DNA of 8,690 bases from Thermoplasmatota archaeon (GTDB taxonomy: Archaea > Thermoplasmatota > Penumbrarchaeia > JASLWR01), in the NCBI GenBank assembly GCA_030740765.1, contig JASLWR010000097.1:1-8690 (forward strand), given 5' to 3'. Below, in pieces: positions 3,043 through 8,690 of the stretch. The notes below the pieces were generated by a model. That model was not told the origin of the DNA, ran no database searches, and saw only the letters and a program-made list of their open reading frames with translations. Position 1 is the stretch's first letter. The number at the start of each line of letters is the position of its first letter. A program made the position numbers and the translations under genes.

Positions 3043-4014
3043 CTACCATTTAACTTCCACGTCGTCGGTCCGATAGTTCTGGTTAACTTGCGATTGCTTT
3101 ATGGGAGTGGTAATGCCCCCTTTGTACATTTCAAGACCCGTAAACGCGATCATTGCACCGTTATCAACGAGAAGTCCACCCTCCGGGACAAAAAAATCCC
3201 CGTCTCTCTCTTCAGCCATGGTCCGAACCATCTGTTGTAGCCGCCTGTTCATGGCAACCCCACCTCCAAGAAGCACTTCTTTCTTCTCTGTATGTGCCAT
3301 GGCTCGCTCGGTTACCTCCGTGAGCATGGCGAAGACGGTCTCCTGAAGGGAATGACACAGTGAACCGAGAGGCACCTTCCCTTTTTTTGATAAGGCGGCG
3401 GTGAGGACACCCGAAAATGCAACATCCATACCCTTCACTGAATAGGGAAGCGGTATGTATTCATCACTCTTCAATGCCATTTTTTCGATCTTCGGACCTG
3501 CCGGGAAAGGCATTCCCAGCATCCTACCGAACTTGTCCAGCATGTTCCCTACACCGATATCCTGTGTTTCTCCGAACACGCGGTATCGGCCCTTCGCCTT
3601 TGCGATGACCTGGGTGTTGGCTCCGGAGGCATAGAGAAGGATGGGGTCCGTCGCTCCCACAATCTTCCCGATCTCCAGGTGTGCCACGCAATGGTTTACT
3701 CCTATAAGGGGGATGTCGAGCCACAACGACAGAGCCCGAGCCGCTGTGGCGGTGCTCCTCAAGCACGGGCCGAGTCCGGGCCCCTGGGAAAACGCTACCA
3801 GGCCCAGATCTCGTGCGGCGATCCCGGCTTTCTCGAGGCTTTCGCCAACCACTGTATGAAGAACGGCTGCATGATGGTTGGCCGCCTCCCTGGGATGAAT
3901 TCCTCCTGAGGGAGGCCGATACATATCCCTGACATTAGAAATGACTTTCCCCTCACCATCCACCACCCCCGCACCAAACGTGTGCGCCGTGCCTTCGAGA
4001 CCCAAAACGAACAA
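3043..4014 (-). CDS. kae1: Archaeal-type Kae1, tRNA N6-adenosine threonylcarbamoyltransferase (KEOPS catalytic subunit). It is stand-alone, not fused to Bud32.
   Basis: LGLEGTAHTFGAGVV N-terminus, PREAANHH, FSQGPGLGPCLR, metal-binding GVNHCVAHLE, GETQDIGVGN, PYSVKGMDVAFSG and VDNGAMIA. It appears collinear with Methanocaldococcus/Pyrococcus Kae1 as I remember them, through to the C-terminal YRTDDVEVKW. The start is ambiguous: GTG 4056 (track), ATG 4047 or TTG 4014. I prefer TTG 4014. It gives MFVLGLEGTAH, matching the usual 2-3 residue N-terminus of Kae1. It also has GGGAG (4027-4023) at SD spacing. Confidence 0.92.
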   Translation of the reverse strand: MFVLGLEGTAHTFGAGVVDGEGKVISNVRDMYRPPSGGIHPREAANHHAAVLHTVVGESLEKAGIAARDLGLVAFSQGPGLGPCLRSTATAARALSLWLDIPLIGVNHCVAHLEIGKIVGATDPILLYASGANTQVIAKAKGRYRVFGETQDIGVGNMLDKFGRMLGMPFPAGPKIEKMALKSDEYIPLPYSVKGMDVAFSGVLTAALSKKGKVPLGSLCHSLQETVFAMLTEVTERAMAHTEKKEVLLGGGVAMNRRLQQMVRTMAEERDGDFFVPEGGLLVDNGAMIAFTGLEMYKGGITTPIKQSQVNQNYRTDDVEVKW

Positions 4015-4036
4015 AATAACATCTCCCGTAGTATAA

Positions 4037-5539
4037 TTAATCCGCATTCCTTTCACGCCAATCGCGCAGAGCCCTGTATGTGAAGATCATATTCTTTGCG
4101 GCAAAGGTCTCATCAAGTCTCTTTCTCGTTGTATTTTGCGGGCATTTTCTCAGTTCTTCAGCATCGGCCTCCGCTATAGCTTTCATAACCTCTACGAAGC
4201 GGTTCATCTCCTCAATGGTCTCAGTCTCGGTGGGTTCAATCATTATGGCCTCGTGGAAGATCTGCGGAAAGTAGATGGTAGGAGCGTGGATTCCCTCATC
4301 CAGAAGCCACTTGGCCGCGTCCAGGGTGCTGGCCCCCTTTTTCTTGAGAATGCTACCGTTGAGGACGAATTCGTGCTTTCGGAGGCCTGGATATGGAAGC
4401 GGGAACAAATGCTCGAGTTTCATTTTCAGGTAATTCGAATTCATTACAGCAGCTTCAGAAACTTTCTCAAGACCATCTCCACCCACGAGCAATGTATAGA
4501 CATATGCTTTCACCAGGACGAGAAAATTCCCCAATTGACCATGAATCTTGCCAATGGTGTAAGGTAGTTTATGATGCAGATCAAATTTAATAGAACCGTC
4601 ATCCTTCACTAGTTTTAGAACACGAGGTACAGGAAGGAATTTCTCCAATTCTTTCGTAACTCCGATTGGACCTGCCCCTGGGCCCCCACCTCCATGAGGA
4701 GTTCCAAAGGTTTTGTGAAGATTGAAATGAACTATGTCAAATCCCATCTTTCCAGGTGTGGTCTTTCCCATCACGGCGTTTAGATTCGCGCCATCATAGT
4801 ACAGAAGAGCTCCGTGGGCATGCACCTTTTCAGCAATTTCCCGTACCCGTCTTTCGAATATACCGAGAGTGTTCGGATTCGTGAGCATGAAGGCACAGGT
4901 TCTATTGGATAGAGCTGCCTCCAATGCTTCAATGTTAACACAGCCGTCCCCTTCCGATGGTATCTCGATAACCTTGAGCCCGGCCATTGCCCCGCTTGCC
5001 GGATTGGTACCGTGGGCCGTATCCGGTAATATTACCTCGTCCCGTTCTTCCCCTTTCGCTTCGTGGAACGCCCTTGCGATGAGGAGACCGGTAAACTCAC
5101 CGTGAGCACCGGCTGCCGGCTGCAGTGTCACGGCCTCGATACCACCAATCACAGAAAGAATTTTTTCTAGTTCGTATATCAGTTCAAGGTTCCCCTGGAC
5201 CATATCAACCGGTTGCATCGGGTGGGTCAGGGCAAAACCCTCGAGGGAGGCCATCTTCTCCGAGAATTTTGGATTGTACTTCATTGTACAGGATCCAAGT
5301 GGGTAGAAACCGCTGTCCACGCCCCAGTTCATCTGCGATAGGCGCGTGTAATGCCTGGCTATTTCGACCTCGGTGAGACCGGGAATATTTATGTCGTCCT
5401 TCTTCCTGATCTCTTTCGGGATAAATTTATCGATCATGGTCGGGTCCAGGCATTCCTGGGAAAAGCATGCCGCCTGTTTCTCGATACAACCCATCTCAAA
5501 TATCAAGAGTTCATCGTATTTCGCCTGCCGGTAAGCCAT
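4037..5539 (-). CDS. gcvPB: Glycine dehydrogenase (decarboxylating) subunit 2, the glycine cleavage system P-protein C-terminal subunit.
   Basis: PLP-lysine motif HFNLHKTFGTPHGGGGPGAGPIGV. GSCTMKYNP. LQPAAGAHGE. Length of 500 aa is typical of split P-proteins. A strong SD, GGAGGTGG (complement of 5544-5551), lies 5 nt before the ATG (5539-5537). The start overlaps the gcvPA stop as TAATG. Confidence 0.95.
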   Translation of the reverse strand: MAYRQAKYDELLIFEMGCIEKQAACFSQECLDPTMIDKFIPKEIRKKDDINIPGLTEVEIARHYTRLSQMNWGVDSGFYPLGSCTMKYNPKFSEKMASLEGFALTHPMQPVDMVQGNLELIYELEKILSVIGGIEAVTLQPAAGAHGEFTGLLIARAFHEAKGEERDEVILPDTAHGTNPASGAMAGLKVIEIPSEGDGCVNIEALEAALSNRTCAFMLTNPNTLGIFERRVREIAEKVHAHGALLYYDGANLNAVMGKTTPGKMGFDIVHFNLHKTFGTPHGGGGPGAGPIGVTKELEKFLPVPRVLKLVKDDGSIKFDLHHKLPYTIGKIHGQLGNFLVLVKAYVYTLLVGGDGLEKVSEAAVMNSNYLKMKLEHLFPLPYPGLRKHEFVLNGSILKKKGASTLDAAKWLLDEGIHAPTIYFPQIFHEAIMIEPTETETIEEMNRFVEVMKAIAEADAEELRKCPQNTTRKRLDETFAAKNMIFTYRALRDWRERNAD

Positions 5540-6903
5540 TAGACCACCTCCATTGATTTCAGATCGGCAATCAATTTATCAATTGACCCGTTGGAATTCA
5601 TTTCAGTGGCGCAGAGGAGAAACGAATTTTCGAGTTCGGGGAAATCCGTTCCAAGTAGATAACCGAAAATGTTTCCCATTTTCAGAAGATCGTCATAGAG
5701 TTTTGCAGGATCAAATATATGCGGGTCAATGGTGACCACAAACTCATTGAAGAAATCACTTTTGAATCGCGGTGCGCTTATACCGTGAATCTTCGAAAGC
5801 TCTTCTCGGAGACGATGAGCATTGGTCAGATTGGCAAGACTCATCTCGTACAATCCTTTGGGCCCGAGACAAGCCAGGGTCATAGCGCATCTTACAGCGC
5901 ACAATGCCTGGTTCGAGCATATATTGGAGGTAGCTCGTTCCCTCCGTATATGCTGCTCCCTGGTTTGCAGAGTCATGACATAGGAATCCTCTCCATCGCG
6001 ATCCTTCGTGTATCCGATCAGTCTGCCAGGCATCTTCCGAACGAATTTCTTATTGCATGCAATGTACCCCGCACCGGGTCCGCCGAATGACGGCGGATTG
6101 CCGAATTGTACTTCACCGATTGCCACATCGGCCCCGGTTTCACCGGGATTCTTCATAAAGGGTGAAGTTAAGAGATTGAAGCCTTCCACGAATAGTGGTC
6201 TTTTTCTGCCCTCACCCAGCATTTCCGGTATTCTTGCGATATCTTTTTCCATTACACCGAAGAAGTTCGGATTTTCTACGTAAATACCACTTGTCTCACC
6301 GGTTATGGAACTTTCAAGACTTTCGAGGTCAAGCCCACCTGTCTTCGGATCATAGTCCACTGTCTTAATTTCAATATTCTGATACCTGGTATAATTTTCC
6401 AGAACCGACATCTTGGACATGGGTAAGGGACTTGCCACTATGAACTCTCTTTTTCTGGTAACCGCCTTGCACATGATGGCCGCTTCACCTATAGCCGTTG
6501 CCGCATCATACAGAGATGAGTTGGACATATCCTGGCCCGTCAATTCTGCAATGTATGATTGATATTCGAAAAGGCACTGAAGCATTCCCTGGCTGATCTC
6601 TCCCTGGTACGGAGTGTACGTGGTAAGGAATTCGCTTCTCGACGACAGATAATCCACCACGGCCGGTACGAAATGATTGTATACTCCGACCCCAAGGAAC
6701 GAATTTACTTCATTCAGGGATGTGTTCTTGGCAGTAATATCCTTGATGATCCGTTCAACTTCCATCTCGGTCTTTCCGGGAGGAAGATCCACCCCATTTA
6801 CCTTTACATCGTCTGGAATATCCGAGAACAATTCCTCCATGGAAGATATACCCATGTCCTTGAGCATCTTATCTTGGAAACACAAGTTTGGTATGAAGTC
6901 CAT
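5539..6903 (-). CDS. gcvPA: Glycine dehydrogenase (decarboxylating) subunit 1, the glycine cleavage system P-protein N-terminal subunit.
   Basis: TPYQGEISQGMLQCLFEYQSYIAELTG and the ELFSDIP N-terminal motif are typical of GcvPA. Its length and position directly upstream of gcvPB also fit. The track start at 6912 is a GTG lying inside the SD box AGGTGATC (complement of 6907-6914). The real start is almost certainly ATG 6903-6901 (MDFIPNL..). Confidence 0.95.
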   Translation of the reverse strand: MDFIPNLCFQDKMLKDMGISSMEELFSDIPDDVKVNGVDLPPGKTEMEVERIIKDITAKNTSLNEVNSFLGVGVYNHFVPAVVDYLSSRSEFLTTYTPYQGEISQGMLQCLFEYQSYIAELTGQDMSNSSLYDAATAIGEAAIMCKAVTRKREFIVASPLPMSKMSVLENYTRYQNIEIKTVDYDPKTGGLDLESLESSITGETSGIYVENPNFFGVMEKDIARIPEMLGEGRKRPLFVEGFNLLTSPFMKNPGETGADVAIGEVQFGNPPSFGGPGAGYIACNKKFVRKMPGRLIGYTKDRDGEDSYVMTLQTREQHIRRERATSNICSNQALCAVRCAMTLACLGPKGLYEMSLANLTNAHRLREELSKIHGISAPRFKSDFFNEFVVTIDPHIFDPAKLYDDLLKMGNIFGYLLGTDFPELENSFLLCATEMNSNGSIDKLIADLKSMEVV

Positions 6904-7059: not shown

Positions 7060-7076
7060 ATTCAATTCCTTTGAAT
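7060..7076. promoter_or_regulatory. Inverted repeat ATTCAA-N5-TTGAAT, a candidate transcription-factor site.
   Basis: Read directly (gATTCAAttcctTTGAATttcc). It is located in the divergent intergenic region about 45 nt upstream of the tRNA TATA-like box. Confidence 0.2.
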
Positions 7077-7092
7077 TTCCAATATTATCTAT

Positions 7093-7108
7093 CGAATTAC
7101 CGAATTAC
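7093..7108 (+). repeat. Perfect tandem duplication CGAATTAC CGAATTAC directly abutting the A/T box upstream of tRNA-Gln.
   Basis: Read directly at 7093-7100 and 7101-7108. It is immediately followed by AAAAAATATATATT. Confidence 0.6.
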
Positions 7109-7122
7109 AAAAAATATATATT
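7109..7122 (+). promoter_or_regulatory. TATA-box-like element (AAAAAATATATATT), the candidate promoter for tRNA-Gln and possibly glnS.
   Basis: It is centred about 43 nt upstream of tRNA position 1. That would imply a 5' leader of about 15-17 nt to be removed by RNase P. Geometry-based inference. Confidence 0.35.
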
Positions 7123-7159
7123 GTGTATCCGGTATGAGCCTAAAGTTCCGGGATATAGT

Positions 7160-7231
7160 AGCCCCGTGGTGTAGTGGTTAGCATCAGAGACTCTGGATCT
7201 CTGGACAGCAGTTCGAATCTGCTCGGGGCTA
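7160..7231 (+). tRNA. tRNA-Gln, anticodon CUG (7193-7195), 72 nt, with no encoded CCA.
   Basis: Hand-folded cloverleaf. Acceptor stem AGCCCCG/CGGGGCT (7 bp, A1-U72). U8. D stem GUGU/GCAU. D loop AGUGGUUA with GG. Anticodon stem AGAGA/UCUCU. Anticodon loop CU-CUG-GA (U33, G37). 4-nt variable region GGAC. T stem AGCAG/CUGCU. T loop UUCGAAU. Discriminator A73. The A1-U72, A73 and G37 combination is the archaeal tRNA-Gln pattern. Confidence 0.93.
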
Positions 7232-7325
7232 TCTTAGTATTGAACCCTCAATTGAACTCTGAGATATTCAAAAGAATCTTTATCTTGATTAATCTGTTTC
7301 TTCGTTATGAAAACGGTGAACTGAA

Positions 7326-8690
7326 ATGAAATCCCCCGATTCTCCACTGCACGACTTTATCCGCAACATAATCGATGAGGATAATGAGACGAAGAAGTAT
7401 GACGGCCGCGTACACACACGTTTTCCTCCCGAGCCCAACGGCTATCTGCATATAGGTCATGCTAAGTCCATCTGCTTGAACTTCGGGATCGCCAAAGAAT
7501 ACGGGGGAAAATGTAATCTCCGTTTCGATGATACGAACCCTTCAAAGGAGGAGACCGAATACGTACAATCCATCATCAACGACGTTAGATGGTTAGGATT
7601 CGATTGGGAGGACCGACTGTTCTTTGCCTCCGACTATTTCGAGCAGATGTACGAACTAGCGGTTCAGCTAGTTAAGTCAGGGAAGGCTTATGTAGATGAT
7701 CTTCCGGCCGAGAAGATCAGTGAGTACCGGGGAACACTCACGTCGGCAGGTAGAAACAGCCCTTATCGCCATCGTCCCATTGATGTGAACCTCGATCTCT
7801 TTTGCCGGATGAAAGCGGGAGAATTCAGCAACGGTGAGAAGGTACTGCGGGCCAAGATTGACATGGCCCACTCGAATATGAACATGCGCGACCCCGTAAT
7901 ATATAGAATACTCCACGCAGCCCATCACCGGACCGGGGATAAATGGTGTGTTTACCCCATGTACGATTGGGCCCACGGCCTCGAGGATTCGATCGAGGGC
8001 ATAACCCATTCGATCTGCACTCTAGAGTTCGAAAACCACCGGCCACTGTACGATTGGTTCCTTGAGGGGTTGGGTGTTTACCACCCTCAACAGATTGAGT
8101 TTGCACGCCTCAATCTTACTTACACGGTAATGAGCAAGAGGAAGCTTCTGGAGCTGGTAGAGGAAGGATATGTCATTGGCTGGAACGATCCGCGATTGCC
8201 AACCATAAGCGGAATGCGGAGAAGGGGATATTCCCCTGCCGCCATCAGGAACTTCTGTTCCCGCATAGGGATTGCAAAGGTGAACAGCACCATTGCAATA
8301 GAGTTGCTGGAACATTGCGTCCGAGACGATCTCAATAAAACGGCACTCAGATTCATGGGTGTTCTGAATCCTTTAAGGGTGGTCATCGACAATTATCCGG
8401 AAGGGGAGACGGAGGAAATGACGGCGGTGAACAATCCCGAGAACCCGGGGGCGGGAACGCGTAAAGTGCCATTCTCCAGGGTGCTTTATATTGAACGGGA
8501 CGATTTCATGGTTAACCCGCCAAGACGTTTCTACAGGTTGGGACCGGGTAGGGAAGTACGTCTGCGCTATGCATATTTCATGACGTGCAATGACTATATA
8601 ACAGATGAGAATGGCGAGGTTGTGGAGCTGCGGTGCACAATTGATCCGGCAACCCGGGGTGGGGATGCCCCGGATGGTCGCAGGGTGCGC
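7326..8690 (+). CDS. glnS: Glutaminyl-tRNA synthetase (glutamine--tRNA ligase), bacterial-type, without the eukaryotic N-terminal extension. The 3' end is truncated by the window edge (455 codons seen, roughly 100 more expected). It is absent from the supplied ORF track.
   Basis: Frame-3 translation from ATG 7326 has no stop through 8690. An in-frame TGA sits at 7317-7319 upstream. SD GGTGA at 7315-7319 lies 6 nt before the ATG. The product begins [72 protein letters not shown]. It continues with [67 protein letters not shown] and [21 protein letters not shown] motif at 7449-7460 and MSK at 8130-8138. The sequence appears collinear with E. coli GlnRS as I remember it, with a majority of positions identical by eye. 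That is far closer than any GluRS would be. Confidence 0.95.

Follow-up and report, generated by a model that had tools for sequence, protein, structure and literature searches.

A bacterial-type glutaminyl-tRNA synthetase gene beside tRNA-Gln in a Thermoplasmatota archaeon, probably an old acquisition

According to reviews and surveys up to 2022, glutaminyl-tRNA synthetase (GlnRS) is absent from all archaea; they explain its absence by incompatibility of archaeal tRNA-Gln, and present the amidotransferase GatDE as the sole archaeal route to Gln-tRNA-Gln (PMC9499178, PMC3439900, PMC5388404). One review words the absence as applying to "almost all archaea" (PMC8762117), a transfer of GlnRS to Archaea is stated without detail in another paper (PMC8879553), and GlnRS is reported beside cox genes in Heimdallarchaeia (bioRxiv 10.1101/2024.07.04.601786). 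In the case of asparagine, some archaea have AsnRS, a direct amide synthetase that is thought to have displaced transamidation (PMC9499178). With regard to the tRNA, the archaeal rule for tRNA-Gln is A73 with A1:U72, bacterial tRNA-Gln has G73, and GatDE recognises A1:U72 together with the D-loop (PMC9499178). We discuss here a gene for GlnRS (glnS) that lies next to a tRNA-Gln gene at the right end of a contig from a Thermoplasmatota archaeon (JASLWR010000097.1, assembly GCA_030740765.1), the window being the whole of the 8,690 nt analysed.

Our reading, to which we give a probability of about 85% on the strength of sequence comparisons, is that this is a functional gene for a bacterial class I GlnRS that was acquired long ago and has since been vertically inherited, and that the enzyme charges the host tRNA-Gln. 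The features concerned are these.

7326 to 8690, plus strand: 5' part of glnS, the first 455 of 561 codons (81%), found by translation and profile matches; it runs off the end of the window.
7449 to 7460, plus strand: HIGH motif (aa 42-45), a class I signature.
8127 to 8144, plus strand: VMSKRK motif (aa 268-273), a class I signature (KMSKS).
7315 to 7319, plus strand: GGTGA, a putative Shine-Dalgarno motif 6 nt before the glnS ATG.
7160 to 7231, plus strand: tRNA-Gln(CUG), identified by ARAGORN, Rfam RF00005 (59.3 bits) and a cloverleaf parse; it ends 94 nt upstream of glnS.

An earlier examination of the window, which we call the sequence-only reading, had reported a 455-codon open frame running off the right edge and missing from the list of open reading frames (ORFs), and this is borne out by translation of 7326-8690(+). 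The frame is stop-free from the ATG at 7326 to the edge of the window, and its 455 codons compare with a mean of 113 and a maximum of 237 for the longest stop-free run in 200 shufflings of the same stretch. It is absent from the ORF list because that list omits ORFs running off the end of the source, and the four ORFs listed opposite glnS (7677-8009, 7825-8106, 8022-8315 and 8120-8392) are all antisense, on the minus strand. The GGTGA motif had been likened to those of the neighbouring genes, and GGTGA or GGAGGTG motifs do precede the genes for CoADR, GcvPA and GcvPB; the block CGGTGA(A/G)CTGAAATG around it aligns with and is conserved in L007, a locus from a metagenome-assembled genome (MAG) that represents a different species. 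The composition of glnS, with GC 0.51 and GC at third codon positions (GC3) 0.60, matches that of the neighbouring genes (GC 0.46-0.54, GC3 0.50-0.585).

The assignment of the product as GlnRS, made earlier from the HIGH and VMSKRK motifs, holds when set against profile models. The window fragment passes both NCBIfam GlnRS models (NF011291, 732 bits, cut-off 681; TIGR00440 glnS, 614 bits, cut-off 425.8), and the full-length protein of 561 aa, recovered from identical contigs (P0002 on L001 and L003), passes them with 873 and 724.5 bits. Both archaeal GluRS models are failed, TIGR00463 giving 347-352 bits with a cut-off of 402, as are the bacterial GluRS model (81-82 bits, cut-off 290) and the GluQRS models, for which the scores are far under cut-off. 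The fragment in the window spans only the catalytic Rossmann domain and the first anticodon-binding barrel, with the Pfam class Ic catalytic domain starting at residue 29; the 561-aa protein has PF00749, PF03950 and PF20974, and thus both anticodon-binding barrels. Among proteins of known structure the scores are 710 bits for P. aeruginosa GlnRS, 689 for E. coli, 526 for D. radiodurans, 468 for human, 407 for yeast and 182 for the archaeal GluRS 3AII, and the protein shares 54% of its residues with E. coli GlnRS in an alignment of 557 aa. Judged by these comparisons the window protein is a GlnRS and not a GluRS.

It is also of the short bacterial type, as had been claimed, its N-terminus being alignable with that of E. 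coli (NFIRQIIDEDL...). A eukaryotic-type GlnRS was considered and rejected, as there is no N-terminal extension of about 200 aa and the scores with eukaryotic chains, 407-468 bits, are under the 689-710 obtained with bacterial ones. We also reject the fusion of GlnRS with a YqeY domain that is given in the NCBI name. Of the 769 positions of NF011291 just 13-562 are matched, and residue 561 is the last of the protein, for which Pfam adds no other domain and which has no YqeY/GatB-like tail; the GlnRS part by itself is enough to pass the cut-off. P0001 and P0002, both of 561 aa, are likewise named "glutamine--tRNA ligase/YqeY domain fusion protein" by NCBI and lack the YqeY domain. The NCBI name is inaccurate.

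The residues expected of a working GlnRS are all present. Using E. coli numbering, calibrated on HIGH as residues 40-43, we take Arg30, Tyr211, Cys229 and Gln255 to be the residues that select glutamine in the E. coli enzyme; they are invariant in each of the 24 sequences sampled from the archaeal group, in 10 other sequences of the same clade (a mix of bacterial and archaeal) and in 78 sequences from the other loci of a genome scan, nearly all labelled bacterial. The same 24 sequences keep HIGH, the SK of MSK, Arg341, Arg402, Arg410, Gln517 and Arg520, and throughout the clade there is no variation at His40, His43, Ser269 or Lys270. The protein could in principle be a GlnRS-like paralogue with another activity, as a GluRS, a GluQRS-like tRNA modifier or a regulator, and the inaccuracy of the existing name might be taken to favour this. 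We consider it very unlikely, as the protein is full length with both barrels, every specificity and anticodon-reading residue is conserved, the GluRS and GluQRS models are far under their cut-offs, and linkage to tRNA-Gln genes, discussed below, suits the canonical role.

The surroundings of the gene had been described as archaeal, and the contig genes agree with this. The marker for the host is as follows.

3043 to 4047, minus strand: gene for Kae1 (t6A synthase), which passes TIGR03722 arch_KAE1 with 468 bits (cut-off 375); the start is as in public assemblies.

Kae1 carries LGLEGTAH, and there is no bacterial label among its best 120 listed relatives, few of which carry an organism label, those being archaeal. 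The tRNA-Gln has A1:U72, G2:C71, C3:G70 and A73 and lacks an encoded CCA. The identical GlnRS fragment has the NCBI accession MDP6157031.1; its 8,691-nt contig belongs to a MAG labelled "Candidatus Thermoplasmatota archaeon", and Kae1 and GcvPB of that contig are MDP6157028.1 and MDP6157029.1. From its genes, the host of the window is an archaeon.

There remains the join between glnS and the rest, which could in principle be an artefact of assembly or binning that placed a bacterial glnS fragment on archaeal DNA: between gcvPA and the tRNA gene there is an A/T-rich spacer of 246 nt, the window ends inside glnS, and some close homologues are labelled bacterial (Planctomycetota, TA06, Petrotogales). 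This is extremely improbable. The gcvPA/tRNA-Gln/glnS junction is common to four independent assemblies from different samples (ENA, on an 80.9-kb contig, JGI, NCBI and Logan), and the second species, L007, retains the order Kae1, GcvPB, GcvPA, tRNA-Gln, GlnRS, with identities to the window proteins of 88% for Kae1, 89% for GcvPB, 90% for GcvPA and 90% for GlnRS. That divergence is even across the junction argues against a chimera, as does the match in composition between glnS and its neighbours. The gene is also present on four single-contig archaeal chromosome records (CP070798.1, 1.92 Mb; CP070724.1, 2.32 Mb; CP070739.1, 3.22 Mb; CP070767.1, 1.99 Mb) and on a 790-kb scaffold. The view that glnS is integrated in the host genome is thus upheld, and the worry about a chimeric join is answered without read mapping.

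NCBI labels the four chromosome records as Thermoplasmatales, Methanomassiliicoccales or Methanobacteriota archaeon. GlnRS homologues at 74-92% identity are numerous, and archaeal markers found beside glnS at other loci include TFS, presenilin PSH, Nop, L15e, archaeal-type AspRS, a class I LysRS domain, PurP and DTD2; matches to SAMP2 near glnS are weaker and under cut-off. At L175 (6360-9781) it is the archaeal-type AspRS gene (model aspS_nondisc) that adjoins glnS, and at L176 (2195-5689) the class I LysRS gene. A metagenome scan for more archaeal loci, which used query-specific peptide patterns, gave mostly bacterial relatives at 63-77% identity, and the only new archaeal-type loci from it are L096, L097 and L136. 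The ratio of non-synonymous to synonymous substitution rates (dN/dS) for glnS is 0.05 for L001 and L007 and 0.09 for L088 and L091, dS being saturated in deeper pairs. On this comparative evidence glnS is old, widespread and constrained by purifying selection in this archaeal group.

We now turn to where the gene came from. In a scan of species-representative genomes the top two matches are archaeal (90% and 75% identity) and are followed by bacteria at 73% or less, among them Sedimentisphaerales, Pirellulales, Phycisphaerae and Aegiribacteria. Trees were made by neighbour-joining (NJ), a distance-based method, and rooted on E. coli. All of the archaeal loci fall in a clade of 41 sequences (support 198/200), the sister of which is a group of 67 that are mostly Planctomycetota (Pirellulales, Phycisphaerae, Sedimentisphaerales), and the next group out comprises Lentisphaerae, Kiritimatiellae and other PVC bacteria. 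Relative to these outgroups the 41 sequences have a one-residue deletion in common. The Planctomycetota-rich sister group, the PVC group next out and the deletion make it most likely, and in our view the best reading, that glnS is of bacterial ancestry with a donor near the PVC bacteria.

The horizontal acquisition proposed in the sequence-only reading is thus sustained as regards bacterial ancestry, with the donor side nearest Planctomycetota/PVC in the NJ trees, but the event is old and not recent. That reading had allowed that, if GlnRS proved to be widespread and vertically inherited in the host lineage, the novelty of the transfer would be weakened and the annotation would stand, and this is the situation in which we find the gene. 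It had also allowed that a MAG annotation might exist already, as indeed it does in MDP6157031.1.

The clade of 41 includes sequences with bacterial labels, which need separate comment. L087 (JGI Ga0247426_1000029, 97 kb; TET33066.1) is labelled Planctomycetota and has a GlnRS, P0018, that is 78% identical to that of the window and shares the clade deletion. Its contig carries tRNA-Arg(ACG), a bacterial-style tRNA-Phe, KdsD, MutS2 and a hairpin terminator, and the A34 type of tRNA-Arg gene is not known from archaea. From this gene content the P0018 group is truly bacterial. The TA06 group (L092-L095) has genes for catalase, Fur/PerR and NosD/Kelch surface proteins around glnS and lacks tRNA genes there, and it could belong to either domain; three TA06 bins carry an identical GlnRS protein. 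The "Petrotogales" entry is probably mis-binned, as it groups beside a single-contig archaeal chromosome record.

The P0018 and TA06 groups may represent the donor lineage, or may be secondary recipients from archaea. In the second case this GlnRS subtype would have diversified inside archaea and been returned to both groups. The clade has far more archaeal than bacterial members, the bacterial groups lie among archaeal branches in one NJ tree, and the one-residue deletion is in all members, each of which would fit such a return. Against it, the other NJ tree puts the bacterial groups, with a few archaeal sequences, as sister to the main archaeal clade, they keep the ancestral length at a second indel as the outgroups do, and the P0018 label fits the Planctomycetota-rich sister group. 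Support is low for either placement, and the two indels, of which one is a synapomorphy uniting the clade and the other unites a derived subgroup of archaea, do not place the bacterial groups. We think a return from archaea somewhat less likely than not.

We come next to the tRNA genes of these loci. Of 14 distinct archaeal lineages, 11 have a tRNA-Gln gene no more than 260 nt from glnS, and 12 have one within 2.2 kb. The usual layout has tRNA-Gln(CUG) upstream of glnS, often with the UUG isoacceptor downstream and sometimes then tRNA-Glu, and the module stays together as its protein-coding neighbours vary between lineages. In about 55 bacterial or unassigned loci we found no tRNA-Gln within 1 kb of glnS; in one of them, L125, a tRNA-Gln of typical bacterial form is present at a distance of 2.9 kb. 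All of the tRNA-Gln genes linked to archaeal glnS are archaeal-looking, with G2:C71, C3:G70 and no encoded CCA. The E. coli and L125 tRNA-Gln have U1:A72, G3:C70 and G73.

The linked tRNAs do differ among themselves at the discriminator base. A73 is present in seven of 12 lineages (the window, L007, L008, L090, L176, L177 and L178/L179) and G73 in the other five (L088, L091, L096, L097 and L136), and wherever both CUG and UUG isoacceptors are present they agree. In L097 there is in addition G1:U72 in place of A1:U72. The G73 genes are as follows.

L088, 9888-9961 and 11920-11994: tRNA-Gln with G73.
L091, 9891-9964 and 12666-12738: tRNA-Gln with G73.
L096, 1272-1344 and 3107-3180: tRNA-Gln with G73.
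L097, 4891-4964 and 6768-6839: tRNA-Gln with G73.
L136, 1255-1327: tRNA-Gln with G73.

As G73 and G1:U72 depart from the archaeal state that is tied to GatDE, the changes suggest adaptation of the tRNA to the acquired GlnRS.

There are other observations on these tRNAs. In L008 the CUG and UUG genes flanking glnS (5851-5926 and 7727-7797) are near-identical, with one difference outside position 34, and in L176 (3858-3928 and 5737-5807) there is none, which suggests either gene conversion or recent duplication with a change of anticodon. There are substantial differences between the two isoacceptors of L088, and between those of L091. By cloverleaf numbering, G12:C23 is present in the D-stem of the tRNA-Gln of the window (7169-7184), the archaeal rule in the cited review being C12:G23.

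We can now suggest how the system would have arisen and how it would work. An ancestor of the archaeal group would have gained glnS from a lineage near Planctomycetota/PVC, with vertical inheritance under strong purifying selection thereafter, and the enzyme most likely charges host tRNA-Gln directly with glutamine. By analogy with E. coli, Arg30, Tyr211, Cys229 and Gln255 would select glutamine, and Arg341, Arg402, Arg410, Gln517 and Arg520 would read C/U34-U35-G36. G2:C71, G10 and the anticodon of the linked tRNA-Gln are common to the bacterial substrate, and the conserved Leu136 could open A1:U72, since this pair is weak like the U1:A72 that it opens in E. coli. In some lineages the discriminator would then have gone from A73 to G73 as the tRNA adapted to the acquired enzyme.

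Several points weigh against this interpretation. The window holds just 81% of glnS, the remainder being taken from identical contigs. The trees are distance trees only and are without eukaryotic or Asgard GlnRS; two NJ analyses gave differing internal topologies with low support, and archaeal monophyly within the clade is found in 35-73 of 200 bootstraps. The clade holds one clearly bacterial group and one TA06-labelled group, so that the transfers may differ in number or direction from what we propose. The window tRNA-Gln keeps A73 and C3:G70, unlike E. coli with G73 and G3:C70. Finally, against a comparison set of 10 GlnRS sequences from the clade, five of them later shown or inferred to be archaeal, the archaeal enzymes have no substitutions of their own at conserved or tRNA-contacting sites, and the three clade-specific changes are all common to the other members; as no residue sets the archaeal enzymes apart within the clade, we see no sign that the protein has adapted to archaeal tRNA.

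The fate of the GatDE route in these archaea is a separate matter. A GatB/E motif search by regular expression over 1.75 Mb of fetched loci gave no match, which says nothing about whole genomes. GlnRS may have replaced the indirect route, with GatDE lost and Gln-tRNA-Gln made only directly, and this we put at close to an even chance. In its favour GlnRS is at about 80% identity, against 62-68% for Kae1, over apparently the same range of relatives, dN/dS is low at 0.05-0.09, and the tRNA-Gln is drifting from the elements tied to GatDE (G73 in five of 12 lineages, G1:U72 in L097); on the other side, the remaining seven lineages, including that of the window, keep A1:U72 with A73.

That retention of canonical archaeal features in the lineage of the window would fit coexistence of GlnRS with non-discriminating GluRS (ND-GluRS) and GatDE, as a redundant or conditional second route, and bacteria such as Deinococcus, Thermus and Bdellovibrio hold both GlnRS and an amidotransferase (PMC4206432). 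However those bacteria keep GatCAB for Asn, and GatDE is Gln-specific, which makes long-term redundancy harder to explain, and G73 and G1:U72 argue for shifted constraints on the tRNA in some lineages. We regard coexistence as possible, with the odds somewhat against it. Much the same tentative standing is given to the wider proposal that a whole clade within the Thermoplasmatota switched from GatDE transamidation, which is regarded as a defining feature of the archaea, to direct glutaminylation by a GlnRS taken from bacteria. The tRNA-Gln(CUG)-glnS-tRNA-Gln(UUG) module would then be a record of tRNA co-evolution with the enzyme, by A73 to G73 in several lineages and A1:U72 to G1:U72 in one.

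Upstream of the tRNA gene there are two further features that may bear on expression.

7062 to 7148, plus strand: intergenic block upstream of tRNA-Gln, conserved with L007 by alignment.
7107 to 7125, plus strand: A/T-rich TATA-like element ACAAAAAATATATATTGTG, inside that block.

The block is likely to be an archaeal promoter for tRNA-Gln and may serve glnS too, in which case the tRNA and its synthetase would share one promoter.

Other features of the neighbourhood can be described briefly. The genes gcvPA, gcvPB and kae1, in that order, form a string at 3043-6903 on the minus strand, opposite to glnS; the string is tight, with an overlap of 1 nt between gcvPA and gcvPB (5539) and one of 11 nt between gcvPB and kae1 (4037-4047), and the arrangement is kept in L007. 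The gcvPA-gcvPB pair is an unusual operon partner for Kae1, which is here without a fused Bud32 kinase. At 290-1957 on the plus strand there is a CoA-disulfide reductase with a C-terminal rhodanese fusion, scoring 519 bits, just under the equivalog cut-off of 579. Just past the right edge of the window, downstream of glnS on the 80.9-kb contig (L001), there is a tRNA gene of 97 nt whose anticodon loop is interrupted by an intron of 20 nt (L001 6305-6401, minus strand; L003 434-530, minus strand), which is a further sign of an archaeal host. From a body resembling the tRNA-Glu of L088 it is probably tRNA-Glu(CUC); the Ser(AGA) anticodon given by ARAGORN in intron mode is implausible.

With regard to novelty, the gene has already been annotated by NCBI (MDP6157031.1) and is so routinely in MAGs. 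In the accessible literature we found no paper on GlnRS in Thermoplasmatota, and searches for the chromosome accessions and for archaeal GlnRS by name gave no hits. The enzyme family is thus a known one, met with in a domain where it was not expected, present in databases and not reflected in the papers found. What is new here is the linkage of tRNA-Gln to glnS and the change of discriminator from A73 to G73.

The enzyme itself is ordinary, and the interest is in where the gene occurs, in its linkage to tRNA-Gln and in the changes in that tRNA. Tumbula et al. (2000) are said to have proposed that the identity of archaeal tRNA-Gln blocks acquisition of GlnRS, and a switch of the whole clade, if true, would be a natural counter-example. 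Stable inheritance of a bacterial-type GlnRS in many archaeal lineages, together with the tRNA-Gln linkage, makes the incompatibility hypothesis directly testable, and the natural A73 and G73 variants of tRNA-Gln are ready-made substrates. For genetic-code engineering, the enzyme and tRNA might in addition be considered as a candidate orthogonal pair.

It remains to set the system beside those already described. In comparison with bacterial GlnRS (E. coli GlnS, 1GTR/1QTQ; P. aeruginosa, 5BNZ) the protein has the same length and domain order with no added domains, and it shares with them HIGH, MSK and every residue that recognises glutamine or the anticodon; in place of Asp235, to which a contact with G3:C70 is ascribed in the E. 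coli enzyme, it has Asn, as do many bacterial relatives. The host is an archaeon, and the neighbouring and presumably cognate tRNA has A1:U72, C3:G70 and A73 (G73 in some lineages), against U1:A72, G3:C70 and G73 in E. coli. The model for the Deinococcus-type GlnRS/YqeY fusion (NF011291; PDB 2HZ7) is the best-scoring NCBIfam model and the origin of the NCBI name, but the window protein is without the YqeY/GatB-like tail, and 2HZ7 gives just 526 bits.

Among archaeal systems, ND-GluRS with GatDE gives the same end product, Gln-tRNA-Gln, by tRNA-bound amidation in place of the direct ligation of glutamine expected here, and the window tRNA-Gln still has the A1:U72 that GatDE recognises. The GlnRS of Heimdallarchaeia, like that mentioned in PMC8879553, is also archaeal but from another phylum, and no analysis of origin, tRNA partner or GatDE is given there. 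The acquisition of AsnRS likewise gave some archaea a direct amide aminoacyl-tRNA synthetase. However archaeal tRNA-Asn already has the bacterial identity elements G73 and GUU, whereas archaeal tRNA-Gln has been argued to be incompatible with GlnRS.

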